A stretch of DNA of 38,771 nt from Acutalibacteraceae bacterium (GTDB taxonomy: Bacteria > Bacillota > Clostridia > Oscillospirales > Acutalibacteraceae). Below are positions 8,306 through 34,523 of the stretch, in pieces. The stretch lies in assembly GCA_045540835.1 (NCBI GenBank), contig JAZQHX010000318.1, positions 1-38,771 of the forward strand. The letters are read 5' to 3'. A program made the translations under genes and the position numbers. Each line of letters opens with the position of its first letter. The stretch's first letter is position 1. Under the pieces are notes generated by a model. The model worked only from the letters and a program-made list of their open reading frames with translations. It had not been told where the DNA came from and did no database searches.

Positions 8306-8399
8306 ATTACTATATTTACCTTTTTAAGATAGCTTTTGATAGCTATCTTTTTTTGTTTTTAATTGTATATATGTTCTCTGAAAATTACATCTCCTTAAG

Positions 8400-10118
8400 T
8401 TATATTGATGGCGCCGGCATATAATTAACCGTAACACCTTTTCGCATAGGAACCTCAATAGTTGGCAATGGTGCAGTGTCAGGCAAGTCTACCGTTCCGA
8501 TGAATTTGTAATGTATTTTTAACCGCTGAATGTTTACTCCATCAACCTTTTCGATAGTATAAACCTCTATATGATCAATTAGCTCATTTAACATAACAGG
8601 GTTAAGTTTTTTAACACGAGTATATTTTTTTACTGTAGAAATAAAACTGTCTATCGTACTGTATTTCGATTCATCGGTTTCGATTTCTGCTTGCAACTTA
8701 CTGATTAACTCAGAAACTTCCTTTTGTTCTTCTTCGTACTTTGCAGCCATTTTCTTAAAACGTTCGTCAGATAATTTACCGGATACATTATCTTCGTATA
8801 TATTCTCGAACAGTTTGTCAAGTTCCTTATCCCTTTTTTTGAGAGTTTTAAGCTGTTGGGTTCTTGATTCTTTTTTGGAATGATATACCGTTTTAGAGTA
8901 ATCTGCAACAAGTTTGGTAAATTGATCCTCGTATCGAGTCGCAAAACGGGTGAGACGTCTGATTTCACCAAGCACTACTTCCTCAAGAAAATCCACGCGG
9001 ATATGATGTGAAGAAAAGCAAGTCTTTCTTTTGCCGCTATTGTAGTTTGGACAGTTAAAATACTTAATACTATTATTCTTTTGATGAAAATGATAGTTTA
9101 AGTTGCGCCCACAATCGCCGCAAATTAATAACCCGCAAAACATATTTCTCTCACCATCATTATTATTCCTACTTCTGGTTCCTTTCTTCTCATTATTCCT
9201 TCTTTCGAGATTAGCTTCAAATAATTCTCTTTCAATTATTGCAGGATTCACATCTTTAAATATCATCATATCTTCAGGTTTGTTCGCAAAACGCTGCTTC
9301 TTTTTGTAAGAGATTGAATATGTTTTGAAGTTAATTATATCGCCGCAGTATTCCTGGGTTGAAAGAATTTTAAGAATTGTTGAATGACCCCATTGATATG
9401 GGTTAGGATGTCTTCTGTTTCCGGCACGTTTGATGCCCTTCCTTGAAAGATACTCTAAAGGAGTCAGTATTTTTTCGTCGGTTAATATATTAGCTATCTG
9501 CAGTGGCCCCATACCGTTATAATAAAGAATATGAATTCTTCGCACAACGGGAGCAACCTCGACATCTATTGCCCAATGATAGGGGTCGTCCGGTATTTTC
9601 ATATAACCATATGGCGGGGGAGATAGAGGCATTCCGGCACTGCCGCGTATTTTGTTGCTTATTCTACGCTTTTTGCTAATATCTCGTGCATACCATTCAT
9701 TGAACAGATTCTTTATTGGTGCAAATTCGTTATCACCTTCATCACTGTCAATGTTATCAGATACAGCTACAAGGCGGACACTATGTTCAGGAAGAAAATC
9801 TTCAATCAATCTTCCTACTTCAATATAGTTTCTACCAAGACGAGATAAATCCTTGACGAATACTGCCGAGACCTTTCCAGTTTCAATAAGCTTTATCATA
9901 TTATTGAATTCCGGGCGGTTCATTGTAACGCCTGAAACACCATCATCGCAGAAAATCTTTATGTCGGTGTAGCCGTAGTCCTTGGCGATTTTTAAAAGTA
10001 ACTTTTTCTGATTGCTGATACTATAGCTTTCGCCTTCCAAATCATCATCTCGAGATAATCTTACATATATGCAAGCGATGCCAAGGCGGACTAAAGTATT
10101 GAGATTTGACTTTGACAC
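8400..10118 (-). CDS. Large serine recombinase (integrase)
   Basis: 572 aa with a GTG start after AGGAGG. N-terminal resolvase catalytic motif IYVRLSRDD. Central recombinase domain, Cys-rich zinc ribbon (CGLLICGDCG...FNCPNY) and C-terminal coiled coil. Confidence 0.9.
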   Translation of the reverse strand: MSKSNLNTLVRLGIACIYVRLSRDDDLEGESYSISNQKKLLLKIAKDYGYTDIKIFCDDGVSGVTMNRPEFNNMIKLIETGKVSAVFVKDLSRLGRNYIEVGRLIEDFLPEHSVRLVAVSDNIDSDEGDNEFAPIKNLFNEWYARDISKKRRISNKIRGSAGMPLSPPPYGYMKIPDDPYHWAIDVEVAPVVRRIHILYYNGMGPLQIANILTDEKILTPLEYLSRKGIKRAGNRRHPNPYQWGHSTILKILSTQEYCGDIINFKTYSISYKKKQRFANKPEDMMIFKDVNPAIIERELFEANLERRNNEKKGTRSRNNNDGERNMFCGLLICGDCGRNLNYHFHQKNNSIKYFNCPNYNSGKRKTCFSSHHIRVDFLEEVVLGEIRRLTRFATRYEDQFTKLVADYSKTVYHSKKESRTQQLKTLKKRDKELDKLFENIYEDNVSGKLSDERFKKMAAKYEEEQKEVSELISKLQAEIETDESKYSTIDSFISTVKKYTRVKKLNPVMLNELIDHIEVYTIEKVDGVNIQRLKIHYKFIGTVDLPDTAPLPTIEVPMRKGVTVNYMPAPSI

Positions 10119-10182
10119 AAATCCTCCTTTCCGCAGTCAAATACACAGCACAATGCATTGGTACTATAGCTGCAAAAGGAGT

Positions 10183-10362
10183 TTAGCGTGAGAGCTCAAC
10201 GTCAAACTGCATCATTCTTATGAGAGCGGTTGTGAGGGTATTATGGCCGTCGGTTTTAAAAACCGGTTCAACCATAAATACCAATCCGTTTTTTGCTTTG
10301 TAGGTTTGTTCTTTTGCTAAATTCTCTTTTGGCTTTTTCTTATAGCGATTATTATCAGCCAT
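10183..10362 (-). CDS. 59-aa mini-protein upstream of the recombinase, TnpW-like by position and pattern
   Basis: Not in the ORF track (below the size cutoff). ATG at 10362 after a GGAGGTG RBS. Product MADNNRYKKKPKENLAKEQTYKAKNGLVFMVEPVFKTDGHNTLTTALIRMMQFDVELSR. Small ORFs of this type precede serine recombinases in clostridial transposons (Tn4451 TnpW), recalled from memory. Confidence 0.45.
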   Translation of the reverse strand: MADNNRYKKKPKENLAKEQTYKAKNGLVFMVEPVFKTDGHNTLTTALIRMMQFDVELSR

Positions 10363-10437
10363 ATTTACACCTCCGAATTCCTTGTATGAAAATCGAGGTA
10401 CAATGCACTGCTATAGTATAACGCCTATTGCAACTCG

Positions 10438-10466
10438 ATTTTACACGTATCAAAAAAAGTTGTCAA
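10438..10466 (-). promoter_or_regulatory. Consensus promoter for the mini-ORF/recombinase transcript
   Basis: On the minus strand: TTGACA (10466-10461), 17-nt spacer, TAAAAT (10443-10438). Confidence 0.5.
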
Positions 10467-10940: not shown

Positions 10941-10969
10941 TTGACAATATTTTCGCTCTATGCTAAAAT
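10941..10969 (+). promoter_or_regulatory. Promoter of the small-toxin mRNA
   Basis: TTGACA (10941-10946), 17-nt spacer, extended -10 TGcTAAAAT (hexamer 10964-10969). Confidence 0.55.
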
Positions 10970-11070
10970 TTATTTGATGCAGCAATGCATCCCTAAGGGC
11001 TACCATAACGGGTAGGCGGTTAGCTCTCCATCTGGAGGGCGCTTTCCCTCCGGAAAGGAGGGCGGTGCCA

Positions 11071-11157
11071 ATGGTTACATATAATGATTTGTTCCTTTTA
11101 GGGACGCTTATTGTATCAATCATCGCACTTGTTGTTACTGTAAACAAAAAGAAATAA
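11071..11157 (+). CDS. 28-aa hydrophobic peptide, type-I-toxin / holin-like-toxin type
   Basis: Product MVTYNDLFLLGTLIVSIIALVVTVNKKK: one TM helix plus a KKK tail. SD AAAGGAGGG lies 8 nt upstream. A CCCTCC anti-SD (11046-11051) is flanked by two GGAGGG copies (11034-11039 and the SD at 11057-11062). Confidence 0.6.
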   Translation: MVTYNDLFLLGTLIVSIIALVVTVNKKK

Positions 11158-11235
11158 CCGCCCGGTCTCAAACAAGCGGTTATAACTTTTAAACCAATTT
11201 TTTGAGGGCTAACCGTCTATCGGTAGTCCTTTTGT
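11140..11235 (-). ncRNA. Predicted antisense (antitoxin) sRNA convergent with the toxin gene; ends approximate
   Basis: A perfect minus-strand promoter lies just upstream (11242-11270). The transcript would run into the toxin 3' end and stop codon, and end after the 11155-11182 hairpin plus a T-run. Confidence 0.45.
11155..11190. terminator. Bidirectional terminator-like hairpin shared by the toxin mRNA and antisense RNA
   Basis: 7-bp stem TAACCGC/GCGGTTA (11155-11161/11176-11182) with U-rich sequence on both strands. Confidence 0.4.
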
Positions 11236-11241
11236 ATTTGT

Positions 11242-11270
11242 ATTATAACACATTACGTGTGAGGTGTCAA
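11242..11270 (-). promoter_or_regulatory. Consensus extended -10 promoter for the antisense RNA
   Basis: Minus strand: TTGACA (11270-11265), 17-nt spacer, TGtTATAAT (hexamer 11247-11242). Confidence 0.6.
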
Positions 11271-11350: not shown

Positions 11351-11515
11351 ATGTTAGGAAAGATTTATGCTTGCGATAATTGCGGATTTTTGTTTATTCG
11401 TTCGGGCGAATGCGAGCAATGCCCCGATTGCGGTAAAAGGCAGGTAAGGTTTGCGAATTCAAAGGAAAAAGAGGAACTGCTTGAAAGGCTTAAAGAAGAT
11501 AAGGAAAACAAGTAG
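11351..11515 (+). CDS. 54-aa zinc-ribbon mini-protein
   Basis: Not in the ORF track. RBS AAAGGTGGG. Product MLGKIYACDNCGFLFIRSGECEQCPDCGKRQVRFANSKEKEELLERLKEDKENK, with CxxC...CxxCxxC and a charged tail. Possible promoter TTGCTT-17-TATAAT at 11300-11328. Confidence 0.6.
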   Translation: MLGKIYACDNCGFLFIRSGECEQCPDCGKRQVRFANSKEKEELLERLKEDKENK

Positions 11516-11528: not shown

Positions 11529-11557
11529 TTGACAAAAGAGATAAAATATCATATAAT
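11529..11557 (+). promoter_or_regulatory. Consensus sigma-A promoter P1 (operon 1)
   Basis: TTGACA (11529-11534), 17-nt spacer, TATAAT (11552-11557). Confidence 0.7.
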
Positions 11558-11656
11558 AATTATGTTCTAAGGTTTGATTTAACTCCCGTTTAATCGGGCG
11601 TTTGTTTGAGTTAAGAGGTCGGATTTATCCTGTTAGGATAAGTCCGCTTTTTTGTT
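11552..11656 (+). repeat. Conserved leader, copy 1 (partner at 20839-20943)
   Basis: Manual alignment gives 103/105 identical positions. Both mismatches (11632, 11634) fall in the loop of terminator T1. Contains a nested stem TTAACTC..CCCG-TTTAAT-CGGG..GAGTTAA. Confidence 0.85.
11617..11653 (+). terminator. Leader terminator T1 (copy 1)
   Basis: About 11-bp stem CGGATTTATCC/GGATAAGTCCG followed by TTTTTT. Confidence 0.7.
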
Positions 11657-11690
11657 TTTAAAAGTTAATAAACCCAAGCGGCCAATCAAG

Positions 11691-11736
11691 ACCGTATCAG
11701 CACTATCCTTTGTGGTAGGTTGGTACGGTTTTTTTG
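11691..11736 (+). terminator. Leader terminator T2 (copy 1)
   Basis: Long interrupted stem ACCGTATCAGC.../...GTTGGTACGGT followed by 7 T. Confidence 0.65.
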
Positions 11737-11776
11737 TTTATATAAAAAACCGTAAAAGAAAGGACTGATGTAAAAA

Positions 11777-14776
11777 GTGTCAACCCCACCTCTGATTCGG
11801 GTATCCTGTCGGGATAAGGTCGAAAATATCGGTATTGAGACCTATTCGGATATGGTTGTATTCGATTCAGAAAAAACACTTGTTGCCATGAGAATCGGTG
11901 GTTATCCGGAATCGGTGCAGGCGATGTCTCAGGCAATCCAAACGGGATGCTCTCTTGAGCTTAAAGGCAAAAGAGAAACATTCCACGTACAAACCAAAGG
12001 CGGTAGAAAATATGAGAAAAGGACATCTCATGACGGCATTTATGCCGAAGGTATGTTTTACCTTAAAGACGATACCGCACATTCGCTGTCTCTTGATGAC
12101 GATGAGCGCAGCGAGAAGGAAGCAGTAGCCTTAAAGCAAAACCTATACTTTTTCTGTAGGGATGACGATGAACTGTATCAGGAGCTCGACAAAAAGCTTT
12201 CGGTGCCATTGATACCCGAGTTCAAAGAATATTTTCTTTCAGAATTAAAGCGTAGGAAACTACTGAAACCATTGCAGGTTTACTGTATCGGCAGAAAATT
12301 TGATGGCTGGGAAATGAGTATCTCAGACAACGAGGCAGCGGTTATAAAGGTTCTTGAGGACGGACTGAAATCGGGGACAATAGAAATCCCCGGCGGTAAG
12401 AACGGCAATCAGGCGGTATTTGCGAATATTAAAAGCTTTACCGACTATTTGCACGACTTTGGAACTATGATAGCTGACCGTATAAAACAGAATTTTCCGC
12501 CAAGATACAATCCCGCAGAGGAATCTATCTGTGCCGAGCTTAAAGAAGTCAATCAGTATGTAATAGACCATGCGGGCTATTCGCTTTTTGATGCGCAGCT
12601 TGGTGCGGCTGAAGGACTTAAAAGGCAGCTTCAAAAGGACAAGATGGCTTTACTTGTAGCTGAATGCGGCACAGGTAAAACCAAAATCGGCAGTGCGGCA
12701 ATATATGCACATCAGCACTCTAACCCCAAAAGCCGAGTATATAACAAGGCGTTCAATGTTATTATTTGCCCTTCACATATTACAGGCAAATGGGTAAGAG
12801 AACTGCATGAAACAATACCGAACTGCTATGCGGAACACGTTCAGACAATGGCTGATGTAGATGCGCTTTATGACCTTTATTTAAAGGAAAATAAAACAGT
12901 GTACTGTATTCTTTCCAAGGAAACCGCCCGTAACGGCTATATGAAAAAGCCTGCGGTTAAATGGAATAGAGTAAGGCGCGGATTTGAGTGTCCTCACTGT
13001 GGCGCCATACAAATGATGCCTATTATGGAAGATGGCGTTCAACTTCTTGTAAAAGCTAACGCTAATTACTTTCTGAACGAAACCGGCAGGAACCATAAGT
13101 GCCGAGACTGCGGCGAGCCCTTGTGGTCTATGATAAACCCAAATGACCTTTCCCCAAAGCGTAACGAATGGGTGCGAATAGGAGGGTATGGATTTGTTCA
13201 TAGACAGTTTTTAGGCGAGGCTATAAGCTTTTGCAAGAAAAAGGATGTTATGGCAAAAATATATGAAATAGCAGATAATCCCGACGGTGTTTTTCCTGCT
13301 GTCGGTGCTTATGAACGGTATCCGCTATCTGCATATATTAAACGCAGAATCAGGCACATTGATGCCTTGCTTGTGGATGAGCTTCATCAGTATTCCGGCG
13401 AGAGTGCTCAAGGTCAGGCTATGGCAGAGCTTGCAGGTATATCGGATAAGGTTGTCGGTATGACAGCCACCCTTATTAACGGATACGCAAAAGGTATTTT
13501 CTATCTTCTTTTCAGACTCAAGGCACACCTTATGCTGGAGGATAACCACCGTTATAATAACTCAAAGGATTTTTGTTATCAGTACGGAGTTGTCGAGCAG
13601 GTATATGAGGTTGAGGCAGATAAATATAACTCTGCTTCCAAATGCTCTAAAAAGAAGGTAAGGGAAAAGTTTTTGCCCGGAATATCCCCGATAGTGTATT
13701 CAAGATTTTTGCTTGAAAACGCTGTGTTTTTATCACTTGCGGATATGGGTAAAGAGCTTCCTGATTACGAAGAAATACCTGTTTTCTGCAAAATGCTCGA
13801 TGAAATATGCGACGAGTATAAGAGACTTGAAAATGAATTCAGGTCAATTATGGCAAAGTCGCAGAAAATCGGCAAACGTATTATGTCGGCATATATGAGC
13901 CTGCTAACAGCCTATCCCGACCAACCCTACGGACACGAGCCACTTTATAACCCATTTAACCGTGAAGAGCCCCTTATCGAACCTAAAGGCTTTGGCGACA
14001 GCGATGTGCTTCAGCCTAAGGATGAGCAGGTTATGGAGCTTATTGAAGGGAAAATTGCAGCAGGGGAGCGTGTAATAATATACACCGCTTGGACAAGGTT
14101 AGATACCCAGACGAAGCTGCATAAGGCTCTCACCGAAAAGGGCATATCTGCTGCAATTCTTGACCAAAGGGTGCCTACTGTAAAGCGTGAGGCCTGGGTA
14201 GATAAACGCTTAGCAGAGGGTGTTAAGGTTCTTATAGTAAATCCCGCACTTGTTGAAACGGGACTTGACCTTAATGCTTTTACAACCCTTATTTTCTATA
14301 ACATAGCCTTTAACTTATATATTTTCCGTCAAGCCGCAAGGCGAAGCTGGAGAATAAATCAGACAGCGCCAAAAGTTGAGGTGTATATGTTCTGCTATCA
14401 GGATACTATGCAGCAACGAGCACTTAAGCTTATGGCTTCAAAGCTATCGGCAGCTACTGTTATAGAGGGTAATATATCCGATGAAGGTTTGGCGGCGATG
14501 TCGGCTTGTGAGGATATGACTACTCAGCTTGCAAAGGAGCTTATGTTAGGGCTTAAGGATAATACCGAGTCTTTGGCCGAAAGCTTTAAAAAGATGGCTA
14601 TTCATAATGAGCGCAAAGCCGAGCCTGTTAAAAAGATTGTGGTAACGCTACCGCAGGTAGAAAAGCCAAAACCAAAACCGATAGAAACATCGGCAAAAAC
14701 TATTAAATTCAGAGAAACCACCGGTAATAAGTACGATACGGGTCAGCTTAGTATTTTTGACCTTATTGCATCTTAA
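11777..14776 (+). CDS. SF2 (SNF2/DEAD-like) helicase with an embedded zinc ribbon
   Basis: 999 aa with a GTG start. Motif I AECGTGKT, motif II LLVDELHQY, motif III MTATLING, C-terminal RecA-like lobe (LIVNPALVETGLDLN, FRQAARRSWRINQ). A CPHCG...CRDCG insertion lies between motifs I and II. Confidence 0.8.
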   Translation: MSTPPLIRVSCRDKVENIGIETYSDMVVFDSEKTLVAMRIGGYPESVQAMSQAIQTGCSLELKGKRETFHVQTKGGRKYEKRTSHDGIYAEGMFYLKDDTAHSLSLDDDERSEKEAVALKQNLYFFCRDDDELYQELDKKLSVPLIPEFKEYFLSELKRRKLLKPLQVYCIGRKFDGWEMSISDNEAAVIKVLEDGLKSGTIEIPGGKNGNQAVFANIKSFTDYLHDFGTMIADRIKQNFPPRYNPAEESICAELKEVNQYVIDHAGYSLFDAQLGAAEGLKRQLQKDKMALLVAECGTGKTKIGSAAIYAHQHSNPKSRVYNKAFNVIICPSHITGKWVRELHETIPNCYAEHVQTMADVDALYDLYLKENKTVYCILSKETARNGYMKKPAVKWNRVRRGFECPHCGAIQMMPIMEDGVQLLVKANANYFLNETGRNHKCRDCGEPLWSMINPNDLSPKRNEWVRIGGYGFVHRQFLGEAISFCKKKDVMAKIYEIADNPDGVFPAVGAYERYPLSAYIKRRIRHIDALLVDELHQYSGESAQGQAMAELAGISDKVVGMTATLINGYAKGIFYLLFRLKAHLMLEDNHRYNNSKDFCYQYGVVEQVYEVEADKYNSASKCSKKKVREKFLPGISPIVYSRFLLENAVFLSLADMGKELPDYEEIPVFCKMLDEICDEYKRLENEFRSIMAKSQKIGKRIMSAYMSLLTAYPDQPYGHEPLYNPFNREEPLIEPKGFGDSDVLQPKDEQVMELIEGKIAAGERVIIYTAWTRLDTQTKLHKALTEKGISAAILDQRVPTVKREAWVDKRLAEGVKVLIVNPALVETGLDLNAFTTLIFYNIAFNLYIFRQAARRSWRINQTAPKVEVYMFCYQDTMQQRALKLMASKLSAATVIEGNISDEGLAAMSACEDMTTQLAKELMLGLKDNTESLAESFKKMAIHNERKAEPVKKIVVTLPQVEKPKPKPIETSAKTIKFRETTGNKYDTGQLSIFDLIAS

Positions 14777-14810: not shown

Positions 14811-15308
14811 ATGCTAAATAAATTGCGTGGAATTTTACGGCAAATTGCAATTGGAAAGGATAAAATAATCGAAATTTCCGCCTCGCTTGAGCCGGAGAAA
14901 AAATCCTGCAATATCACCGAACTTTTTGAAAGTATTGTAAAGAAGGTATATGAGAATCGAGAATCGCTCAAAAGATGTATTGTGGATTGCGATGTAAATT
15001 CAAAGAATTTCGCAATAATTACTCTTGATATGAAAAAAATATCGAAGCGTAAACAAAGACAGTACAATTTGCATCGATTGTTTGATGGCACTTTTAACAT
15101 ACAACGGTGTTCGTTTTGTGGCTGTCAATTTCTTACATACTTTCCCTATACTTACAGAGAATATGCGGGATGTGTCGGAAGGTCTTACGAATGTATAACG
15201 TGCAGAAATTTTGATAATAAATCAGCTCACGAAATTATTGTTGTTCGTAAAAAGAAAGGCGCAAAAGCCGCAAAAAAATTTCAATTAAAATTGTTTGAGG
15301 TGAAATAA
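14811..15308 (+). CDS. Hypothetical protein with a C-terminal Cys cluster
   Basis: 165 aa with RBS AAGGAG. Contains CSFCGC...CITC. No family recognised. Confidence 0.6.
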   Translation: MLNKLRGILRQIAIGKDKIIEISASLEPEKKSCNITELFESIVKKVYENRESLKRCIVDCDVNSKNFAIITLDMKKISKRKQRQYNLHRLFDGTFNIQRCSFCGCQFLTYFPYTYREYAGCVGRSYECITCRNFDNKSAHEIIVVRKKKGAKAAKKFQLKLFEVK

Positions 15309-15533
15309 ATGAGTTACATAAGAAAACCAAAAATACGGATAGATTTCGATTCCCCTGATGGCAATATTTTTGTAATAAGGGCAAAGGCAATAGGCGCTAT
15401 AAAAGCCTTTTACGTTCTCGATAAAGCAGAAAAGCTTAAAGAGTTTGATGAAAAATGGGAGCAGATAAAGGATAAAACCTATGAGGATGCTCTTAATGTT
15501 ATCAGAGAGTTTGTTGAGATTGAAGAGGAATAG
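15309..15533 (+). CDS. Hypothetical small acidic protein
   Basis: 74 aa with RBS GAGGTG. The start abuts the upstream stop. Confidence 0.6.
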   Translation: MSYIRKPKIRIDFDSPDGNIFVIRAKAIGAIKAFYVLDKAEKLKEFDEKWEQIKDKTYEDALNVIREFVEIEEE

Positions 15534-18120: not shown

Positions 18121-18540
18121 ATGTTAAATTTAACAGTAATGACAGGTAGACTCACAGCAGATCCGGAACTCAGATACACAGAAGGTAATAATACCCCCGT
18201 TTGTAATTTAACTATTGCAAATCAGCGTAATTATCCAAACGCTGAGGGAGAGCGTGATACCGATTTCTTCAATTATGTTGCTTGGAGAAAAAACGCAGAG
18301 TTTATCTGTAAATATTTTAAAAAGGGTTCATTGATTACCTTGGTAAGCTCAGCACAAACAAGGCGTTATCAGGAGAACGAAACAGGCAAAACAAGAGTTG
18401 TGGTTGAATTTATTGTAAACCAGGCTCAGTTTGCCGAGAGTAAAAAGGGCGCCGATGGCGGAGAGCCTAGCGCAGATGCACCCGATGACATTGTTGCAGA
18501 TTTCGGCGATGTCAGTGCAGATGATGATCTTCCGTTTTAA
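18121..18540 (+). CDS. ssb: Single-stranded DNA-binding protein
   Basis: 139 aa. OB-fold start MLNLTVMTGRLTADPELRY, acidic tail ending DDDLPF. Confidence 0.9.
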   Translation: MLNLTVMTGRLTADPELRYTEGNNTPVCNLTIANQRNYPNAEGERDTDFFNYVAWRKNAEFICKYFKKGSLITLVSSAQTRRYQENETGKTRVVVEFIVNQAQFAESKKGADGGEPSADAPDDIVADFGDVSADDDLPF

Positions 18541-26852: not shown

Positions 26853-26877
26853 AACACAAAAAAGAAAGGACGATTTT

Positions 26878-27369
26878 ATGTTCAACCCCATTTTATATTT
26901 AATAACCCTTTTTGAGCTTTTTATTGCAAGAAAAAGGGCAAAAGCGGCAAAAAATGCTATGAACCATAAAATAACAAAGACCCGCACCGACGCCGATGAG
27001 CTCGATAGGTGCTATGAGAACTTTCTCAAGAGAGCTAACCGTGAAGAAAAACTGGCGGTAAAGCTCAAGAGAATAAAGAACCAGAACACCGATTTTGCAA
27101 TTTTAAAGGTGTGTCTTAACCTTGGCGATGTAATGAAAAGCAAAGGAGCCGAAGGTCTTACAAAGCTTGATATTTCTACTGCCCTTACCCGTCATAAGCA
27201 CGGGGACTGGGGAGAGCAGGAGCGTAACCGCTGGATAGATAACAATATGGCAGTAATAGAAGGCACGGGCGTTATCTGTTCAAGATATAAATATCACGGC
27301 GGCGGAGCTTTCCTGATTAACACCGATATCCTGAACCATAAAACCAGAATATGTCTGGAGGGTGAATAA
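26878..27369 (+). CDS. Membrane-anchored protein with a C-terminal HGDWG...SRY motif
   Basis: ORF trimmed to the ATG at 26878 (RBS AAAGGAC). Has an N-terminal TM helix. The C-terminal RHKHGDWGE...NNMAVIEGTGVICSRY recalls a small family I remember from plasmids/ICEs, but I cannot name it. Confidence 0.4.
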   Translation: MFNPILYLITLFELFIARKRAKAAKNAMNHKITKTRTDADELDRCYENFLKRANREEKLAVKLKRIKNQNTDFAILKVCLNLGDVMKSKGAEGLTKLDISTALTRHKHGDWGEQERNRWIDNNMAVIEGTGVICSRYKYHGGGAFLINTDILNHKTRICLEGE

Positions 27370-27704
27370 TGAGCTTGAAACTGGATATCCCGCTTTTTAA
27401 GACAATCCTTATTGGAATTGATGAAGAAAGCGACAGATTTGAGCAAATGCTGAGCGCCAAAATGAAGCAGTATAAAGGCATTGAGTATATCAGAGATGCT
27501 GTGCTTCAGTCATTGCTAAACGGTGTAGAGGTCAGTGTCAGCGATTTAGACTTAGATGCTTTTGATATTGAGGATGTGTGGGAGTTTAATAGTTGCTACT
27601 ATGATTATTGTGATAATATGGGTTCTCTTCGCAGTCTTTCCTCACGCTTTATTGATTCCTGCAAGGAAACTGAGCCGAAACCCGTTGTGGCAAGCTTTAT
27701 TTGA
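27369..27704 (+). CDS. Hypothetical acidic protein
   Basis: 111 aa with RBS GGAGGG. D/E-rich. Confidence 0.5.
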   Translation: MSLKLDIPLFKTILIGIDEESDRFEQMLSAKMKQYKGIEYIRDAVLQSLLNGVEVSVSDLDLDAFDIEDVWEFNSCYYDYCDNMGSLRSLSSRFIDSCKETEPKPVVASFI

Positions 27705-27715
27705 GAGGTGCCATT

Positions 27716-28297
27716 ATGTCTAATAGAGATATAAGCGATATAGCTTTTGAGGATGTAATCGGGACATTAGCTATTGTAAAGCTTGTTTATGATGAAACAG
27801 GTATAAGGATGAATACTCAGTTAAACGAGTATTCGCTTTGCGAAACCTATTTTGAGGCATTGGATTATGCGGGAAACAGAGAGGAATCGGCAGATGATTA
27901 TTACGGCGGATATATAGATAAGTATTCCTTTGAATTCATGCCCCGCTATTATGAACTTTGCAAGGAATACGGGCGTATGAATAAAGTGAAATTCAGCAAA
28001 AATCCGTTTGTGCTGGAGGCTGCTCGACTTGTCAATTCTGAAATGAACGGAGTCGATAGTTACTGTATAAGCTGGTCTCTTTTTACCCCTAAAAGGATAG
28101 AAAAGAAAAAGTATCCTTGTCTTGCAATTTTCCTTGACCCTGAGTTCTTTCAGCCGATTCAGCTTGTTGAAGCCCTTTGTAATATCCGCGCATTTTACCG
28201 TGAGGGTGTTATAAGACTTGAAAAGGCGATAAATGCGCAAAAGAACAACATAATCGTAATGCCGGACAAAACTGCCGAAAGGAAGAAAGCCGCATGA
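27716..28297 (+). CDS. Hypothetical protein
   Basis: ORF trimmed to the ATG at 27716 (RBS GAGAGGTG). 193 aa, ends KKAA. Confidence 0.5.
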   Translation: MSNRDISDIAFEDVIGTLAIVKLVYDETGIRMNTQLNEYSLCETYFEALDYAGNREESADDYYGGYIDKYSFEFMPRYYELCKEYGRMNKVKFSKNPFVLEAARLVNSEMNGVDSYCISWSLFTPKRIEKKKYPCLAIFLDPEFFQPIQLVEALCNIRAFYREGVIRLEKAINAQKNNIIVMPDKTAERKKAA

Positions 28298-28947
28298 GAA
28301 ATGAAGTATTATTACATATCTTTGATGATGGCAACGTTCATGTTGAAATAACCGAAGGTGTTAAGGTAACCACAAAATCCATTGCGGTAGATACCCTTGT
28401 GAACTGTATTAAAAGCAGTCTCAGGAGTACTGCAATCCAATCGGGCTTGCTTCCGAGAAATGTAGTCGCAACCGCATTTTCTACCGATGGTTCATACAGG
28501 CGAGTTATAGTTGAGCTTGCATCAGAACGTGCGACGATTACCTACGGAAACACCGAGTATGAAAACTTTCCGCTACCGAGAATGCTGTTCGCTTTCAAAG
28601 TGGCGCAAAATGGCAGGGTGTCCGGTGTGGAGGTTGCAGTATGCGGACAGGGCAAGCTGACCCCCGAAACACCGCTGTATTATTATCCGTTTTCAAATGT
28701 AAATGGTTTTAATATGTGCACAGGGGGAAATCCGCTGCCTAAAATTGAGAGTTTAAGCCAACTTGAAAATCTTCCTGATTTTATCGTATCCATTCCCGAT
28801 AATGATGATTATTACAAGGAAGATCACAACTCTTTAAATCTCGGGCACCGTGACCTTTTAGAGCATCTTCGGGACAAGGACAGACAGTACTATTATGACC
28901 GTATTTTAGTACCGATGAAAAACCAAACCTTACAGAATTTCCTATAA
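28294..28947 (+). CDS. Hypothetical protein; possible E2/UBC-like fold (speculative)
   Basis: 217 aa. FPLPRMLFAF (92-101) and YPFSNVNGFNMCTGG (131-145, Cys142 at nt 28717-28719) loosely echo the UBC YPxxPP..F and HPN-x7/8-C layout. Confidence 0.3.
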   Translation: MRNEVLLHIFDDGNVHVEITEGVKVTTKSIAVDTLVNCIKSSLRSTAIQSGLLPRNVVATAFSTDGSYRRVIVELASERATITYGNTEYENFPLPRMLFAFKVAQNGRVSGVEVAVCGQGKLTPETPLYYYPFSNVNGFNMCTGGNPLPKIESLSQLENLPDFIVSIPDNDDYYKEDHNSLNLGHRDLLEHLRDKDRQYYYDRILVPMKNQTLQNFL

Positions 28948-28959: not shown

Positions 28960-29814
28960 ATGAACAAAGAACAAGAAGCAAAATTACAAGAGCCTTTTAC
29001 CGCCGCTGAAATAGACTGGCGTGTAATAAGGACAACCAAGGACAAAACCAAAGGCCAGGTAGCCGCTTATGTGGACTCAAGAGCCATTCAAAACAGGCTT
29101 GACAGTGTAGTAGGTAAGGATAACTGGCAAAACGATTTTATAACTGTGTCGGGGGCGGACAATAATGCTACCGCACACATTTGTAAGCTGAGCATTTACT
29201 ATCCTGAAAGAGGTGAGTGGATAGTAAAAAGCGATGGTGCAGGCTGTACTGATATAGAACCCATAAAAGGCGGTCTTTCAAACGCTTTTAAGCGTGCTGC
29301 ATCTATGTGGGGAATGGGCAGATACCTTTATGAGCTTAAAAATATATGGGTAATGCTCGATGAATATAAATGCATTGCAAAACACGAAAAGCCAAACCTT
29401 GATTCGATTTATAACGAGTTTTTAGCAAAGCTTTTAAAATCATCAGCCAAAGGCGCACAAAAAGGTAGTGCTCAGCAAACCGCACCGACGGTCAGAAAGC
29501 CCAATACGGCGCCTTCTGCCGATAGCAAGCCAAAGCCGAACGGTGAAGTTCCTGCAGGAAGATTTGCGGGTAACTCTGCTCCAAAACCTTCGGGATTTGA
29601 TTTTTACAACATAACCGAACTCAAGGTTATGAAGGATAATTCACAAACAAAGGTTACGATGCAGTCACCTGACGGTGAAGTAATTGTAGGCTATATGAAG
29701 GGAGTGCCTGAACTCAGGAAAGGACAAACAATCTCCAAACCTAAAATTGTTGTCAAAAACGCTCCCGGAATAGGAAATTACAATATAATCCAAGGCTATG
29801 ATTTAGCCGCATAA
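28960..29814 (+). CDS. Rad52/Rad22-type single-strand annealing protein
   Basis: 284 aa. Hallmark motif GGLSNAFKRAASMWGMGRYLYEL, followed by a low-complexity linker and a C-terminal beta-rich domain. Confidence 0.75.
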   Translation: MNKEQEAKLQEPFTAAEIDWRVIRTTKDKTKGQVAAYVDSRAIQNRLDSVVGKDNWQNDFITVSGADNNATAHICKLSIYYPERGEWIVKSDGAGCTDIEPIKGGLSNAFKRAASMWGMGRYLYELKNIWVMLDEYKCIAKHEKPNLDSIYNEFLAKLLKSSAKGAQKGSAQQTAPTVRKPNTAPSADSKPKPNGEVPAGRFAGNSAPKPSGFDFYNITELKVMKDNSQTKVTMQSPDGEVIVGYMKGVPELRKGQTISKPKIVVKNAPGIGNYNIIQGYDLAA

Positions 29815-29841: not shown

Positions 29842-30435
29842 ATGAAAACCCCAAAATATCAATATGTATTTTTTATTACAGTAACGGTACTGGAGAGCCT
29901 TTTGGCAATCGCAGTATCAATGCTTTACGCAAGCAACATTTTGCCTTATATGAAAGGCACCCTTATATTTCTGTCTATCATAGGCGGAAATATTGCCATA
30001 TTCTCCTTAACGAGATTCTTTTATAAGACTGCAATCGACTCTGCTTTAGAGCAAACTGCAGCCTACAGGGATAAAAGCAAAGAGCTTGAAGCCGAAAATA
30101 AGCATCTTTCTGATAAGGTAAGGGAGCTCGAAAGCAAAGAACGGGATGTAGGACGTCTTCGTGAAAAATGCAACTCTATAGAATACTTCCGTAACAGCTT
30201 TCCCCTTAATATTTCGGATGAATATGCCGTTTACAATATTATGCGAACCGACCTTCAAACCGGCGATTACAGCAAATGGCAGATTGTCGGCGTGTATAAG
30301 GATGAGCTTTGGTCCTATACGCTGCTTCGTCCGGACTCTCAAACCTTTAAGGAAATGTTAAGCTTAGTTTCCTCAACAAAGGAACCTGCAGGACTTAAAA
30401 ACATTAACCTCGATACAGAACTTTTGTACATGTAA
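29842..30435 (+). CDS. Membrane protein (2 TM helices) with a coiled-coil segment
   Basis: 197 aa. Two hydrophobic helices in residues ~8-60, then a heptad-like KELEAENKHLSDKVRELESKE. Confidence 0.55.
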   Translation: MKTPKYQYVFFITVTVLESLLAIAVSMLYASNILPYMKGTLIFLSIIGGNIAIFSLTRFFYKTAIDSALEQTAAYRDKSKELEAENKHLSDKVRELESKERDVGRLREKCNSIEYFRNSFPLNISDEYAVYNIMRTDLQTGDYSKWQIVGVYKDELWSYTLLRPDSQTFKEMLSLVSSTKEPAGLKNINLDTELLYM

Positions 30436-30445: not shown

Positions 30446-32257
30446 ATGGAGCAGATTACTGCAATGAAAATAACCCAGCTTGAGCTTCGAAATTTCAGAA
30501 ACCAAGTTGACCCCGAAACCTTTGAGCTTGGCGATGTAAGCTATATTTCCGGTCATAACGGAACGGGCAAAACAACCTTGGCTCACGCCGTTTGTTATGC
30601 TCTTTTCGGCGTAAGCTATTACGGTGAGCAGAAAATAGAGCGCCTTATGAATGAGGACTCGGATTCTGTAAGTGTCCGTATGCAGTTTATTGACCAAGAC
30701 GGAAATATACACAACATTACCCGCAGTCGTAATAAGGATAAAACATATATACTGCTTGATGGTGTTACGGTACGCCAGGCACAGATAGAGGCAATGTTTT
30801 GTGAAAGAGATATGTTTCTTTCTATGTTTAACCCTGCGTATCTTACCGAATGTATGGACAGCGCCGACAGTCGCAAGCTTGTTTTGCGGTATCTGGGTGA
30901 AGTATCAAACGAAGATATTTTGCAGGAAATTGGCGGCAGCAGGGAATACCTTGAGGGTGTTGATTTATCCGTTAAACCGCCCGAAATGCTTATGTCAGAC
31001 TTTCGTGCTATGATACGGCAGGCCGAACAGCAAAGTGATATTTTAAAGGGTAATATTGATGCTGTTAAGCAAAACCTTGAGGCATCAAAAAAGAAGCTCT
31101 CCGACCTTTATGATGAGCGCCGAAAGACCGATGAAGAGATTAAAGGTCTTGAAAGCAAAAGAAATGAAGGGCTCGATTTTGGCGAGCTTGCCATTACTAA
31201 GGATTTGCTTTTGAGCCAGCTTCAGTCAGCGGGCAATAACGCGGCGGAATTTGAGCTTAAGTCAAAGCTTGAGCAGGCAAAAGGCAGAGTATATGAATCT
31301 AAATTCACTACAGCTATTGCCGAGGCGCAGGCAGAGGTAAAGCTGCTCACCGAAAAGCACGGTAAGCTTAAAAAGAGAGCTGAAGCTATAAGGCCCGGTA
31401 TCAAATGCCCAACCTGTATGATGGCTATTACAGAACAGAATATGGGTGCAGTTAAAAAGGGTATTATAGAAGAGCTTAACGGTATAGCAAAGCAGGGCAG
31501 AGAGGCTGTTGAACGTCTCAAGGAAGTAACCGAGATGGATAAACAGTCCAGACTTAAATTTGAAGAATTTAAAGCTGCTGATATTGCAAAGCTTACCGAA
31601 GAAATCAGTGCTTTAAGCTCTGCCAATAATACCGAAGACATATCCGAAATACAGGCTCGGCTAGATGATGTTGAATACACTCTTGCAAACGGTAATCTTG
31701 ATGAAGAAGAGCTTTCACGTCTTAAAATTTTAGAGGCTACATTAGTGGGTATTGATGCACAAATTGAAGCCATTAAAAATGAGACCAGTGAAGAGCGCCT
31801 TTTGGATGCAATTACTCAGCAACAGCTATTTACGGAGCAAATTGAAAAATACGAAAAGACAATATCTGCGCTTCGTGAATTTCTTTTCAAAAAGGCTGAA
31901 CTTGCTACAAAGGGGCTTGAAATGCCCAACGTTAAGTTCCGTTTGTTTGAGGTGATACGGACAACTGGTGAGCTAAAGAGCGTGTTTAAATTTGAGTATA
32001 AGGGCAGGGAATATACAACCCTATCCTTATCCGAAAAAACACTTGCGGGTATTGAAATTGCCGCTATGATGCGCCGCATTACAGGTGTTGACTGCCCGAT
32101 TTGCGTAGACAATACCGAAAGCGTTGCAGGCTTTAATCCTGTTGCAATGCCATCTCAAACGGTGTTGCTTAGATTCGTAAAGGGAACACCCCTAACCGTG
32201 CAGGTTAAGAACAGGACACCTGCCGTACAGATTCAGGAACTGCGGAAAGCGAGCTGA
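30446..32257 (+). CDS. Rad50/SbcC-family ABC ATPase with coiled coil and CxxC zinc hook
   Basis: 603 aa. Walker A GHNGTGKTT, long coiled coil with central KCPTCMM hook, signature-like LSLSEK and Walker B ICVDNTES. Confidence 0.75.
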   Translation: MEQITAMKITQLELRNFRNQVDPETFELGDVSYISGHNGTGKTTLAHAVCYALFGVSYYGEQKIERLMNEDSDSVSVRMQFIDQDGNIHNITRSRNKDKTYILLDGVTVRQAQIEAMFCERDMFLSMFNPAYLTECMDSADSRKLVLRYLGEVSNEDILQEIGGSREYLEGVDLSVKPPEMLMSDFRAMIRQAEQQSDILKGNIDAVKQNLEASKKKLSDLYDERRKTDEEIKGLESKRNEGLDFGELAITKDLLLSQLQSAGNNAAEFELKSKLEQAKGRVYESKFTTAIAEAQAEVKLLTEKHGKLKKRAEAIRPGIKCPTCMMAITEQNMGAVKKGIIEELNGIAKQGREAVERLKEVTEMDKQSRLKFEEFKAADIAKLTEEISALSSANNTEDISEIQARLDDVEYTLANGNLDEEELSRLKILEATLVGIDAQIEAIKNETSEERLLDAITQQQLFTEQIEKYEKTISALREFLFKKAELATKGLEMPNVKFRLFEVIRTTGELKSVFKFEYKGREYTTLSLSEKTLAGIEIAAMMRRITGVDCPICVDNTESVAGFNPVAMPSQTVLLRFVKGTPLTVQVKNRTPAVQIQELRKAS

Positions 32258-32263: not shown

Positions 32264-33400
32264 TTGAAAAACTATGTCTATATTGATGTAGTTGATACAG
32301 CATTAGTCTGCGGTCTGGACATTAAGCCCGGAACTCTCGGAAACGAAGAGGTAGAGGCGAGATGCCCATACTGTAATGACTATAAATACCGTATGTACCT
32401 GAGCCATAAAAGAGATAACGCCGCCTTCTGGTGCCACAATTGCGGTACCGGAGGCAGCGCTGTCACCCTGTATGCTGATTTTAATCCCGAAGGCAAGCGC
32501 CTTACTCATTATGCGGCATACAAGGAGCTTTTAGCCCATCCTGATATTCGTTGTGATGAGGTGCCGATAGAGAATAAAAAATACTCTACTGGAAAAATAA
32601 GACCATTGCATGAGCGCAGTGAGATTTACCTTGAATTTCTAAAGCTTTTGGATCTTGAGGAAAGGCATTATACTAATCTTTTCAACAGAGGACTAAGCGA
32701 TGAAATGATAAAGGGTAATATGTACCGAAGCATACCTACAGATTACTTTAAACAGCAAAAGGTACTAAATGAACTCACAAAACGCTATGACCTTTCGGGA
32801 ATTCCCGGGTTTTATACCAAAAACAACAAATGGAAGATAGCAAACTGCAAGCATAGCGGTATCCTTATTCCCGTTGCCGATAAAGATAATATGATACAGG
32901 GCTTACAGATTCGTCTTGATGAGCCGCCGCCAAAGATAATCGAAATGCCTGACGGCAGTAAAGCCGAAAAGGCAGGAGACCGTTTCAGATGGTTTTCCAC
33001 AGGCGGTAATTATTATGAAAACGGAACGGGAATATCCAGTTATATTCACATAGTAGGGGACCAGAGCTCCGACACTGTGTATATAACCGAGGGCCCGATG
33101 AAAGCAGATGTAGCAAGCTATCTTTCGGGAGGTAAACTCTTTATAGGGCTTACGGGCGTACAGAATGTACGGTATTTAGCCGATGTTGTATCAACCCTTA
33201 AACCTCGGCGAATAGTGGAATGTATAGATATGGACTGTAGAACTAACCCCCATGTGCAAAGAGCACAATCTAAAATACGGTCAATATGTGCGACGCTTTG
33301 TGAAGAATATAAGCTATTCACATGGCCTATTGAACAAAAAGGAATTGATGATTACCTCTTGTTTGAAAAGCTTAAGCGTGAGCATGGATTGGCAGCTTAA
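32264..33400 (+). CDS. DnaG-type primase (CHC2 zinc finger + Toprim)
   Basis: 378 aa with an uncertain TTG start. Contains CPYC...FWCHNCGTGGSAVTLY, NLFNRGLSDEMI, Toprim Glu in ITEGPMKAD and the acidic CIDMDC. Confidence 0.7.
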   Translation: MKNYVYIDVVDTALVCGLDIKPGTLGNEEVEARCPYCNDYKYRMYLSHKRDNAAFWCHNCGTGGSAVTLYADFNPEGKRLTHYAAYKELLAHPDIRCDEVPIENKKYSTGKIRPLHERSEIYLEFLKLLDLEERHYTNLFNRGLSDEMIKGNMYRSIPTDYFKQQKVLNELTKRYDLSGIPGFYTKNNKWKIANCKHSGILIPVADKDNMIQGLQIRLDEPPPKIIEMPDGSKAEKAGDRFRWFSTGGNYYENGTGISSYIHIVGDQSSDTVYITEGPMKADVASYLSGGKLFIGLTGVQNVRYLADVVSTLKPRRIVECIDMDCRTNPHVQRAQSKIRSICATLCEEYKLFTWPIEQKGIDDYLLFEKLKREHGLAA

Positions 33401-33426
33401 ATTTGAAAACTGAAAGGACAAATAAT

Positions 33427-34404
33427 ATGAAGAATATGGAAAGCTTTATGGCTGTAAATGAGAATACCGATGGTATTATAGGTAAATTCTTCTATTACTC
33501 AACCTCTAAAATCCTGATTCGCAAGGATGAGTTTATAAATGTCGGTATGTCGTTCGGACTGCCGAAATTTAAACCCGCCAAGGAATCAAAATCCGGCGCT
33601 TACAGAAACGCCACTACGGCAATAAAAGACAGGGTAACTGTAAAGGATGCTACGGGCACCCACGTGTACCGTATTTATTGCCGAGATAACAAAAAGGAAA
33701 CGGAAAATGCAGAGCGTATTTGCAGGGAGCTTGTAAAGGAAACACTTGAGTCCCGCACCAATGAATACAAGAAGCTTGCTAACATCATATTTGATAAGCA
33801 AACCGAAACGGTTTACTTTGAAAACGAGGTTTTTGACCCCGATGTTGATGTTACAGCTTACTGTGAAAAGGCGAGGGAGCTCTTTGAGCTTTACTGTGAC
33901 TGCTACACCTCTGACCAGGTAGATGCGGTTATAACCGATATGCTTGACCGTATGCAAGCAAATGAAATAAGCATACACGGAAAGCTTTTCTTTATTCCAA
34001 ACCCCAATCTGCCGTTGCTTAACGTGCTTGAGGATTATATTGAGGCGATAAGCCAGCATAACCTCAGTGACGGTCTTGTGATGAGCAACAGTATGTTTGT
34101 TGTTGATGACGAAAAGCAGAGAAAGAAGATGACCGAAGAGTTTTATGCGAACTATAAGCGGGATATTGAATTTTACCAGAAACGCATACAAAACTTTATT
34201 GAAAACGGTTGTGATTCAAAAACGGTTATTGACCGTTGGCTTAAAAAGGTCAGCGACCTGCAGAAGAAAAAGGCTTTATATGAGGATGTGCTAAAGCAAC
34301 AGCTTGATGCACTGAACTCCGATTATGCTGTTCTTCAGATGCAGTCGCAGGAGCTTTTAGTAAGGAGCAATGGCGGACACGCACAAATGCAATTTGCAGC
34401 ATAA
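33427..34404 (+). CDS. Hypothetical protein (last gene of operon 2)
   Basis: ORF trimmed to the ATG at 33427 (RBS GAAAGGAC). 325 aa, ends QFAA. No family recognised. Confidence 0.55.
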   Translation: MKNMESFMAVNENTDGIIGKFFYYSTSKILIRKDEFINVGMSFGLPKFKPAKESKSGAYRNATTAIKDRVTVKDATGTHVYRIYCRDNKKETENAERICRELVKETLESRTNEYKKLANIIFDKQTETVYFENEVFDPDVDVTAYCEKARELFELYCDCYTSDQVDAVITDMLDRMQANEISIHGKLFFIPNPNLPLLNVLEDYIEAISQHNLSDGLVMSNSMFVVDDEKQRKKMTEEFYANYKRDIEFYQKRIQNFIENGCDSKTVIDRWLKKVSDLQKKKALYEDVLKQQLDALNSDYAVLQMQSQELLVRSNGGHAQMQFAA

Positions 34405-34444
34405 ATAAAAATTTTAAATAGCCGTAAAAACGGCATAAAACAAG

Positions 34445-34497
34445 GCACTCCAGCAGATTTTTTGGTCTGTTGGAGTGCTTTCTAATTTGTTTTTTTA
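34445..34497 (+). terminator. Intrinsic terminator ending operon 2
   Basis: 12-bp stem GCACTCCAGCAG/CTGTTGGAGTGC (one G:T) followed by a T-rich tract ending TTTTTTT. Confidence 0.65.
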
Positions 34498-34523
34498 TAA
34501 ATTGTATTAAAATTTAATAGAAA

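Follow-up and report, generated by a model that had tools for sequence, protein, structure and literature searches.

A 26 kb integrative element beside a tRNA-Pro gene of an Acutalibacteraceae bacterium: a probably mobilisable relative of integrative and conjugative elements

The DNA analysed here, a stretch of 38,771 nucleotides from an Acutalibacteraceae bacterium (contig JAZQHX010000318.1, hereafter the window), is a complete metagenomic contig in itself with a G+C content of about 40%. It contains one site-specific integrative element, which spans positions ~8256 to ~34,490, between a tRNA-Pro(GGG) gene and a PocR/AraC gene. The window copy is a real, intact and recently mobile element of 26 kb, all of whose open reading frames (ORFs) are intact. 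We consider it reasonably probable that a large serine recombinase drives its integration at tRNA-Leu and tRNA-Pro genes, that its two operons encode a partial replisome, and that it spreads by means of a type IV secretion system (T4SS) acting in trans. As a minority of relatives carry the same operons beside VirB4 and VirD4 genes of the CD1110/CD1115 type, the window copy is probably a transfer-less, mobilisable element related to integrative and conjugative elements (ICEs).

Proteins were annotated with profile hidden Markov models; Pfam and PHROGs were applied to all proteins of the element and NCBIfam to 20 of them. A scan of species-representative genomes yielded 50 loci of the family, all of them in Oscillospirales; individual loci are referred to below by L numbers. 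The element begins with the recombinase gene and a 59-aa (amino acid) ORF on the reverse strand, followed by a 1.4-kb gene-poor stretch and then by two long operons on the forward strand (11777-20612 and 21076-34404).

The strongest evidence for integration is provided by six independent insertions. In each of them, the CCA end of a tRNA gene is followed by 4 variable nucleotides (nt), a hairpin that starts with GAGTG and has the loop TTATAGGATT, and finally a T-run. The tRNA genes occupied are as follows:

Window: tRNA-Pro(GGG)
L080: tRNA-Leu(TAG)
L001: tRNA-Leu(CAG)
L002: tRNA-Leu(TAG)
L039: tRNA-Pro(TGG)
L083: tRNA-Leu(GAG)

Conservation of the hairpin across these six insertions means that it is element DNA in place of the native tRNA terminator, and judging by its sequence it would serve as the terminator of tRNA-Pro. 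The preliminary description of this DNA had read the same hairpin as the host's own tRNA-Pro terminator and had placed the left edge of the element at 8330; comparison with relatives moves that edge to ~8256-8260.

Closely related copies are found at different tRNA genes. L001 and L002 are 99.8% identical over 14.8 kb; their identity ends exactly at the tRNA, each copy occupying a different tRNA-Leu gene. Over 15 kb, L080 and the window element are ~90% identical, yet L080 is located at tRNA-Leu(TAG) and not at tRNA-Pro. L083 and L084, which are 99.95% identical, likewise have different left contexts. Since near-identical copies occupy different tRNA genes, the family is mobile, and these pairs supply, in equivalent form, the empty-site comparison that had been proposed earlier as a check. 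The point at which L083 and L084 diverge (L084 9400-9760, L083 9576) is flanked by the repeated motifs GGAGTGTCC and GGACACTCCCTTAACAATCG. These resemble GAGTG at the element end and could denote either a cargo junction or a secondary site of recombination.

The features that bound and insert the element are the following (coordinates, strand, description):

8180..8255, (+): tRNA-Pro(GGG), an intact host gene with the attachment point at its 3' CCA end
8256..8308: left end of the element, consisting of the 4-nt spacer TTGC, the conserved end hairpin GCGAGTGACGTT..AACGTCGCTCGC and a T-run
8400..10118, (-): large serine recombinase of the TnpX/TndX type with DUF4368 (Pfam Resolvase, Recombinase, Zn_ribbon_recom and DUF4368; phrog_95 integrase, 1e-87)
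10183..10362, (-): conserved 59-aa ORF adjoining the recombinase gene (homologs of 57-60 aa beside the recombinase in L002, L004, L005, L080 and L083)
34444..34496: terminal hairpin-terminator, an inverted repeat after the DUF6744 gene
34613-35458, (-): PocR/AraC gene, the host gene that bounds the element on the right

The tRNA-Pro(GGG) gene at 8180-8255 (+) is the sole tRNA gene in the window (ARAGORN; Rfam tRNA, 64.4 bits), and the inverted repeat of the left end occupies 8258-8300. The right end lies at ~34,484-34,520, just past the hairpin that follows the DUF6744 gene, where the conservation among relatives ceases right past the last terminator. A displaced 3' fragment of the tRNA was sought at this end and none was found. 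Compared as inverted repeats, the two ends have only the short GAGTG motif in common, the GA of which is present at the left junction and within the right terminal hairpin. The interval from tRNA-Pro to PocR/AraC is filled with tightly packed ORFs, as had been noted (we count ~30), and the flanking host genes are indeed of the sugar type. The nearest PocR relatives (85% identity; L070, L071) are accompanied by Asp23 and a spoIIIA operon, without tRNA-Pro or sugar genes; the host of the window may be rearranged beside PocR, or its synteny may simply differ from that of L070 and L071. Look-ups of the exact window PocR and methyltransferase proteins returned nothing on record, and a megablast search with 24.7 kb against phage and plasmid collections (50,697 phage records) gave no match.

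All four Pfam domains of the recombinase exceed their cut-offs, so that the TnpX/TndX-type architecture is present. The proposal that the element is driven by a large serine recombinase is supported. The 59-aa ORF gave no family match in Pfam, PHROGs or NCBIfam; its position makes the protein a candidate directionality or accessory factor. We suggest that the TnpX/TndX-like recombinase, probably helped by the 59-aa protein, inserts the element directly 3' of the CCA of tRNA-Leu or tRNA-Pro genes, and that the inserted end would then give the tRNA gene a replacement terminator.

Two properties by which ICEs are recognised bear on the classification. A site-specific integrase and defined ends are present, in the form of the serine recombinase and the conserved end hairpin at six tRNA-CCA junctions. 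A T4SS and a relaxase of its own were not found for the element in the window; VirB4 and VirD4 are present in the relatives L019, L023, L081 and L082. The preliminary description had stated that virion and transfer genes are lacking, and had named hidden capsid/terminase or relaxase/T4SS proteins as the finding that would overturn it. None was detected: capsid, portal, terminase, tail, lysin, relaxase, type IV coupling protein, VirB4, Rep and polymerase had no Pfam or PHROG match among all proteins of the element and no NCBIfam match among the 20, and a tblastn search of the window with the relatives' VirB4, coupling protein, RepA_N and neighbouring proteins produced nothing. A relaxase of a known family was likewise not recognised by Pfam, PHROG or NCBIfam scans in the element, and none was identified in the T4SS-bearing relatives.

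In L081 and L082, genes for VirB4-like, VirD4-like, RepA_N and DUF5697 proteins are co-directional with, and directly upstream of, a helicase operon 67% identical to that of the window. NCBIfam assigns their coupling protein to the CD1115 family (359 bits versus a cut-off of 250). The best matches of the VirB4-like ATPase are the Mbov_0397 ICE and CD1110 VirB4 families, with scores below the cut-offs because the gene is only partly visible. In L019 and L023 (isolate genome, 1.08-Mb scaffold), the same conjugation genes are convergent and lie right after DUF6744, with neither a recombinase nor a tRNA gene in between. The window, L080 and L083 begin with a recombinase and a tRNA gene rather than a T4SS. 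In a minority of the relatives, the two operons are thus components of true elements of the ICE type, and an element without its own machinery would most likely spread through a CD1110/CD1115-type conjugation system in trans. The earlier view that the layout stands apart from all known kinds of element is not supported, as the same operons adjoin VirB4, VirD4 and RepA_N genes in relatives and their core recurs on a plasmid and, partly, in a jumbo phage (see below). The idea of a hitchhiker on another element, raised at the same time, has become the best-supported reading, given the T4SS genes beside the same operons.

The same relatives could point to a decayed ICE, i.e. an immobile remnant of a conjugative element from which the genes for the T4SS, relaxase and RepA_N have disappeared, and the window also lacks the sigma and HTH_16 regulators found by the recombinase in L001 and L083. 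Decay seems unlikely to us, as the ORFs are all intact, both operon promoters match the consensus perfectly, the T4SS-less layout recurs across several lineages, and near-identical copies at different tRNA genes indicate recent movement.

The proposal of an integrative element mobilised in trans has to be set against several observations. T4SS genes occur within 10 kb in only ~4 of the inspected relatives, hence most family members may move by another route. No relaxase, origin of transfer or circular form was identified for the window element, so mobilisation in trans is only inferred, and the element encodes neither a replication initiator nor a polymerase, which makes autonomous replication no more than a possibility. 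The right end is fixed only to the range ~34,484-34,520 and the crossover to no single base. The databases contain neither a conspecific sequence nor a conspecific empty site, the window PocR protein clustering with itself alone.

In kind, the element is comparable to integrative mobilisable elements (IMEs), pipolins or tycheposons. With IMEs and clostridial conjugative transposons (Tn4451, Tn5397 and the conjugative transposons of C. difficile) it shares the set of recombinase domains, including DUF4368, and the small ORF adjacent to the recombinase gene. Some relatives have sigma-like and HTH_16 regulators by the recombinase, as in those elements, and relatives are linked to a CD1110/CD1115 T4SS, while integration on its own without a mating pore is a trait of IMEs. 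The element differs in having no relaxase/Mob of a known family and in its target, which is the 3' end of a tRNA-Leu or tRNA-Pro gene; the sites used by TnpX and TndX are GA-centred, and these recombinases are not known to use tRNA ends. Moreover, Tn4451, Tn5397 and the C. difficile elements lack the 22-kb core of two operons.

Pipolins (PMC11551731) and tycheposons (10.1101/2020.12.28.424599) are self-integrating, transfer-less elements located at tRNA genes. The window element resembles them in being integrated beside a tRNA gene and in carrying replication-type genes without capsid or conjugation genes. It shares no marker gene with them, lacks pPolB, and is distinguished by its serine recombinase, its different core module and its T4SS-linked relatives. 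We recognised none of the tycheposon hallmark genes known to us in the element.

The first operon, together with the Zn-ribbon gene that precedes it, has the following content:

11351..11515, (+): Zn-ribbon protein of 54 aa, possibly a regulator (weak rubredoxin-like Pfam matches; conserved in L080)
11777..14776, (+): helicase of 999 aa, SF2/SNF2-like (Pfam ResIII, Helicase_C; phrog_62; 971 homologs)
14811..15533, (+): two small ORFs of 165 aa and 74 aa (74-aa protein: phrog_1933, 1e-5; homologs scattered among relatives)
15542..16720, (+): DnaN-like sliding clamp (Pfam DNA_pol3_beta, 1e-12; phrog_947 processivity factor, 1e-33)
16736..18100, (+): AAA+ ATPase of the MoxR/RavA type (Pfam bpMoxR, 6e-37, AAA_5, AAA_lid_8; phrog_19600, 3e-63)
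18121..18540, (+): single-stranded DNA-binding protein (SSB) with a canonical acidic DDDLPF tail (Pfam SSB, 3e-26)
18556..18995, (+): two small ORFs of 80 aa and 67 aa, without family matches
19068..20612, (+): ViaA-like VWA protein, the MoxR partner (VWA_CoxE; NCBIfam ViaA, 8e-18, below cut-off; phrog_24053, 4e-45)

The helicase contains, at residues ~405-445, a CxxC...CxxC pair that is invariant in 16 homologs of 51-75% identity; this invariance suggests that a putative Zn-ribbon is inserted in the motor domain.

The second operon is longer:

21076..22392, (+): JAB/JAMM metallopeptidase with a long N-terminal extension, PRTRC_A-like (Prok-JAB; PRTRC_A, 4e-11)
22389..23189, (+): ThiF-type E1 adenylating enzyme, PRTRC_ThiF-like (ThiF, 4e-17)
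23193..23839, (+): two ORFs of 73 aa and 141 aa, the 141-aa protein with a conserved C-terminal Gly
23872..24939, (+): radical SAM enzyme, an accessory gene that only some relatives have (Pfam Radical_SAM)
24929..26311, (+): DUF6094 methyltransferase (Pfam DUF6094, 3e-89)
26337..26852, (+): sigma-like or helix-turn-helix (HTH) protein, every match below curated cut-offs
26842..28297, (+): three ORFs of 175, 111 and 198 aa, their order conserved in relatives, without family matches
28294..28947, (+): E2-like protein (Prok-E2_D), PRTRC_B-like (Prok-E2_D, 28.8 bits versus a cut-off of 25; PRTRC_B, 2e-6)
28960..29814, (+): single-strand annealing protein of the Rad52/Erf type (Pfam Rad52_Rad22, 8e-14; phrog_1097, 1e-43)
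29842..30435, (+): membrane and coiled-coil protein of 197 aa, its position conserved in relatives
30446..32257, (+): SbcC/Rad50-like ABC ATPase (AAA_23, SMC_N; phrog_77)
32264..33400, (+): primase-like protein with a Zn-finger and Toprim (DUF3854, 1e-9; phrog_47 primase; dnaG domain, 8e-6)
33403..34404, (+): DUF6744 protein, signature of the family, encoded by the last gene (Pfam DUF6744, 1e-87; 320 homologs)

Every function named in the preliminary description, among them the helicase, clamp, SSB, primase, annealase, ATPase, MoxR/VWA and JAB/E1 proteins, was recovered by the profile searches, whose matches corroborate a partial replisome with a protein-modification set; the E2 (Prok-E2_D) and DUF6744 assignments are additions to the earlier gene list. 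For DUF6744, a profile search of PDB sequences gave nothing meaningful, and the AlphaFold2 (AF2) model, with a mean confidence score (pLDDT) of 68, had no Foldseek match with E < 0.1.

We propose that the helicase, clamp homolog, SSB, primase, Rad52 annealase and SbcC-like ATPase would work with the host polymerase. Together with the MoxR/VWA pair, the orphan methyltransferase and the JAB/E1/E2 proteins, these DNA-handling genes would most likely help the excised element to replicate, to be repaired, to become established and to be protected.

Distant relatives of this core module were found by tblastn with the DUF6744 and VWA proteins. On the 137 kb Alicyclobacillus plasmid NZ_CP066785 (L103), genes for SSB, an SbcC-like ATPase, DnaN, DUF6744, MoxR, VWA, DUF6094 and a long DEAD/SF2 helicase are clustered, and the cluster adjoins AcrIIA9-family and PcfJ genes. 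The Bacillus jumbo phage 0305phi8-36 (L102, 171-188 kb) encodes a DUF6744-like protein (gp46), a VWA protein (gp63), MoxR (gp66) and a clamp (gp39), and the shared genes are located in the replication region near polymerase and RecQ genes. These plasmid and phage homologs differ from the element in showing 22-38% identity and in having no JAB/E1/E2 genes or recombinase-tRNA arrangement in the stretches examined. The presence of MoxR, VWA and DUF6744 genes beside DNA-handling genes in both replicons speaks for a joint function of the MoxR/VWA pair and DUF6744 with such genes in very different mobile elements, and against their being detachable defence cargo.

The resemblance to the jumbo phage, which has DUF6744, MoxR, VWA and a clamp as well, raises the question of whether the element might be a satellite or a defective prophage that retains only a phage-type replication/recombination module and is packaged in the capsid of a helper. 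PHROG matches of the clamp, SSB, Erf-like annealase, SbcC-like ATPase, primase, MoxR and VWA proteins, and the classification of relatives of 40% identity as viral contigs in IMG/VR, are consistent with this. Such an origin is nevertheless improbable. The window has no capsid, portal, tail or lysis gene and no terminase gene, the small subunit included, i.e. none of the genes by which a tailed prophage is recognised, and it carries no known satellite hallmark. Several of the IMG/VR contigs begin exactly at the helicase gene, and the relatives of 40% identity end after tandem recombinases. The upstream DNA that is visible in IMG/VR contigs holds RHS, SLH, DUF4367 and ABC genes, and in two of these relatives no virion gene is present among the annotated ORFs upstream of the helicase (RHS, SLH, ABC). 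As the upstream ORFs that were checked are not of virion type, replication and recombination genes are probably the reason for the 'viral' label in IMG/VR.

The JAB, E1 and E2 genes of the second operon resemble those of PRTRC, which is the operon type 6d of Iyer et al. 2006, in which a JAB protein with an additional N-terminal domain, an E1 and an E2 are combined with a helical protein and with a small ubiquitin-like protein that has a C-terminal Gly; it is often found on mobile elements (PMC1779556). The JAB protein of the element likewise has an N-terminal extension, its active-site motif HxHx7Sx2D is intact (HSHNTMPAEFSGID, read directly in the sequence), and it is accompanied by a ThiF-type E1 and a Prok-E2_D E2 on a mobile element. 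The best NCBIfam matches of the three proteins are PRTRC_A (42.9 bits versus a cut-off of 101.8), PRTRC_ThiF (108.3 versus 144.75) and PRTRC_B (27.4 versus 131.45), all of them sub-threshold. In contrast to PRTRC operons, the E2 gene lies 5 kb away from the E1 and JAB genes, no ubiquitin-like protein can be recognised, and the host belongs to Firmicutes, whereas PRTRC occurs mainly in Proteobacteria or Bacteroidota. Profile scans of the element proteins and small ORFs revealed no PRTRC C (ubiquitin-like), D, E, F or ParB-family protein. Because all matches are sub-threshold and PRTRC C-F and ParB are missing, the set is best described, from its sequence, as a putative distant variant of PRTRC and not as a member. 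The 141-aa protein was considered as a candidate for the missing ubiquitin-like protein, and this was not supported: a single-sequence AF2 model had a pLDDT of 60 (low confidence) and no beta-grasp match. A literature search for PRTRC function and for the gene combination of the element found no functional study.

Such proteins might also be regarded as defence or anti-defence cargo, in which a ubiquitin-like conjugation system is combined with a helicase, a methyltransferase and an ABC ATPase, and the life cycle of the element does not depend on the operons. JAB/E1/E2 sets function in CBASS and Bil defence (PMC10097602). PADLOC gave weak domain-level matches to E1-E2, pVip, mad2, mad3, LmuB, DpdE, ZorD and DrmD, the module adjoins the AcrIIA9-family gene on the Alicyclobacillus plasmid, and MNT/HEPN toxin-antitoxin genes lie between the operons in L080 and L083. 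We judge the cargo explanation quite unlikely, since PADLOC recovered no full gene set of any system (CBASS type II, MADS, Lamassu, DISARM, Dpd, Zorya and others) and the gene order is kept down to ~40% identity along with the replication-type genes and recombinases, so that the operon genes behave as a core and not as swappable cargo. The gap between the operons, empty in the window (20613-20815), is occupied in close relatives by an MNT/HEPN toxin-antitoxin pair and another small gene (L080 13689-15041, L083 18862-19936), and for this reason looks like a small cargo hotspot.

A peculiar trait of the element is the Ala-Ala C-terminus of 8 of its 28 proteins in the window, encoded by the genes ending at 16720, 20612, 23414, 26852, 28297, 29814, 33400 and 34404 (binomial p ~1e-6 for enrichment). 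About 10 protein families have a conserved Ala-Ala end, including the clamp, helicase, E1, sigma-like, Rad52, SbcC-like, primase and DUF6744 families. Counts among homologs are as follows:

Rad52: 45 of 45 ending in Ala-Ala
DUF6744: 56 of 64 ending in Ala-Ala
Sigma-like protein: 19 of 19 ending in Ala-Ala
198-aa ORF: 26 of 28 ending in Ala-Ala
Clamp: 4 of 4 ending in Ala-Ala
SbcC-like ATPase: 25 ending in Ala-Ala and 20 in Ala-Ser
E1: 7 of 12 ending in Ala-Ala

Such ends are found in 38% of 454 dereplicated element homologs, compared with 2.9% of 444 background ORFs. The pattern also holds for the clade of 40% identity, in which the helicase has an Ala-Ala end as well.

Two readings of these tails can be offered, by analogy with described systems, and the evidence on them is mixed. 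The tail might be a handle by which the element's own E1, E2 and JAB proteins conjugate and release proteins other than ubiquitin. Cap2 and Cap3 act on a C-terminal Gly or Ala of the bacterial cGAS, a terminus that is conserved only in operons with Cap2 and Cap3 (PMC10097602). We hold this conjugation reading to be doubtful; if true, the element would possess a conjugation system directed at its own proteins and acting on several substrates, by which a mobile replisome is controlled. Alternatively, and as the more ordinary reading, the tail could be an ssrA-like or Ala-tail-like ClpXP degron that makes the proteins short-lived, given that ClpX recognises ssrA-like and Ala tails. A compact variant of the element without visible JAB/E1/E2 genes retains the Ala-Ala ends; the distant plasmid and phage homologs have no such ends, and their examined stretches, as mentioned above, no JAB/E1/E2 genes.

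The two operons are each preceded by a copy of the same promoter-leader:

11529..11776, (+): promoter-leader copy 1, before the helicase operon, with TTGACA-17-TATAAT, a conserved leader and two intrinsic terminators
20816..21075, (+): promoter-leader copy 2, before the JAB operon, 91% identical to copy 1 over 128 nt

The direct repeat (11529-11656 and 20816-20943) consists of a perfect TTGACA-17-TATAAT promoter, the leader TGTTCTwAGGTTTGA, a hairpin and an intrinsic terminator, with a second terminator ~80 nt later; the ribosome-binding site GAAAGGAC follows the second leader terminator. The same architecture precedes the matching operons in L080, L081, L083 and L003, where the hairpins show compensatory changes. 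The leader belongs to no Rfam family, and a BSnc120 match (E = 0.27) was dismissed as chance. Two terminators between the promoter and the first gene point to control by termination or antitermination, and both operons would then be jointly controlled at this step. In the processive antitermination system conAn, the ConAn1 protein and a large conAn2 RNA are found at the start of a Gram-positive conjugation operon (PMC8191782). Among described systems this is the nearest analogy, and an analogy only, the likeness being tandem terminators in an operon leader.

The gene-poor stretch next to the recombinase module contains one further cassette:

10941..11270: type I toxin-antitoxin-like cassette (Hol_Tox ORF at 11071-11157, (+), with its own promoter)

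The Hol_Tox ORF encodes 28 aa (Pfam PF16935, 24.6 bits versus a cut-off of 23.3). An antisense promoter of perfect consensus (11270-11242, (-)) is convergent to it, and the two share a predicted terminator at 11154-11183. The region is likely a type I toxin-antitoxin pair with a putative antisense RNA, and the cassette may favour retention of the element.

Within Oscillospirales the family is present in at least 50 species genomes, among them those of Clostridium leptum DSM 753 and Massiliimalia massiliensis as well as genomes of Faecousia and Acutalibacteraceae. The order of the second operon is kept: JAB, E1, two small ORFs, an optional radical SAM gene, DUF6094, the sigma-like gene and three ORFs, followed by E2, Rad52, the membrane protein, the SbcC-like ATPase, primase and DUF6744. 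The recombinase module may lie at either end of this block and in either orientation. In the clade of ~40% identity (including the IMG/VR contigs L059-L068), three or four large serine recombinases follow DUF6744 in tandem, and in L075-L077 the element stops at DUF6744 and host genes follow. The stretch between the recombinase and the helicase is variable: it holds the Hol_Tox and Zn-ribbon ORFs in the window, and sigma and HTH genes with three glycoside hydrolase genes in L083, the latter at 4993-9572 between the recombinase module and the helicase operon. A degraded copy of the element, L078, contains a gene for a reverse transcriptase of the group II intron type (2206-3129).

A search of the literature found no description of the family; DUF6744 was not mentioned and DUF6094 appeared in one paper. 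The family is widespread in gut Clostridia, being common in human-gut and animal-gut Oscillospirales, and apparently undescribed. Its distinctive traits are the targeting of tRNA 3' ends, the PRTRC-like set without a recognisable ubiquitin-like protein, the duplicated two-terminator promoter-leader and the Ala-Ala tails. The element is probably a variant of an integrative, probably mobilisable element and not a separate class.

The window copy offers a concrete case of a 26-kb element that stays mobile without transfer genes, and of a serine recombinase acting at tRNA 3' ends, a target usually associated with tyrosine integrases. A conserved module for DNA replication and recombination, parts of which are common to ICEs, plasmids and a jumbo phage, is connected in it with a MoxR/VWA pair and with a ubiquitin-like cassette (PRTRC type) that is poorly understood. 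The twin two-terminator promoter-leaders and the Ala-Ala tails are testable handles on the timing of expression and on protein lifetime. The recombinase itself may find use in integrating DNA at landing sites that are natural and highly conserved.

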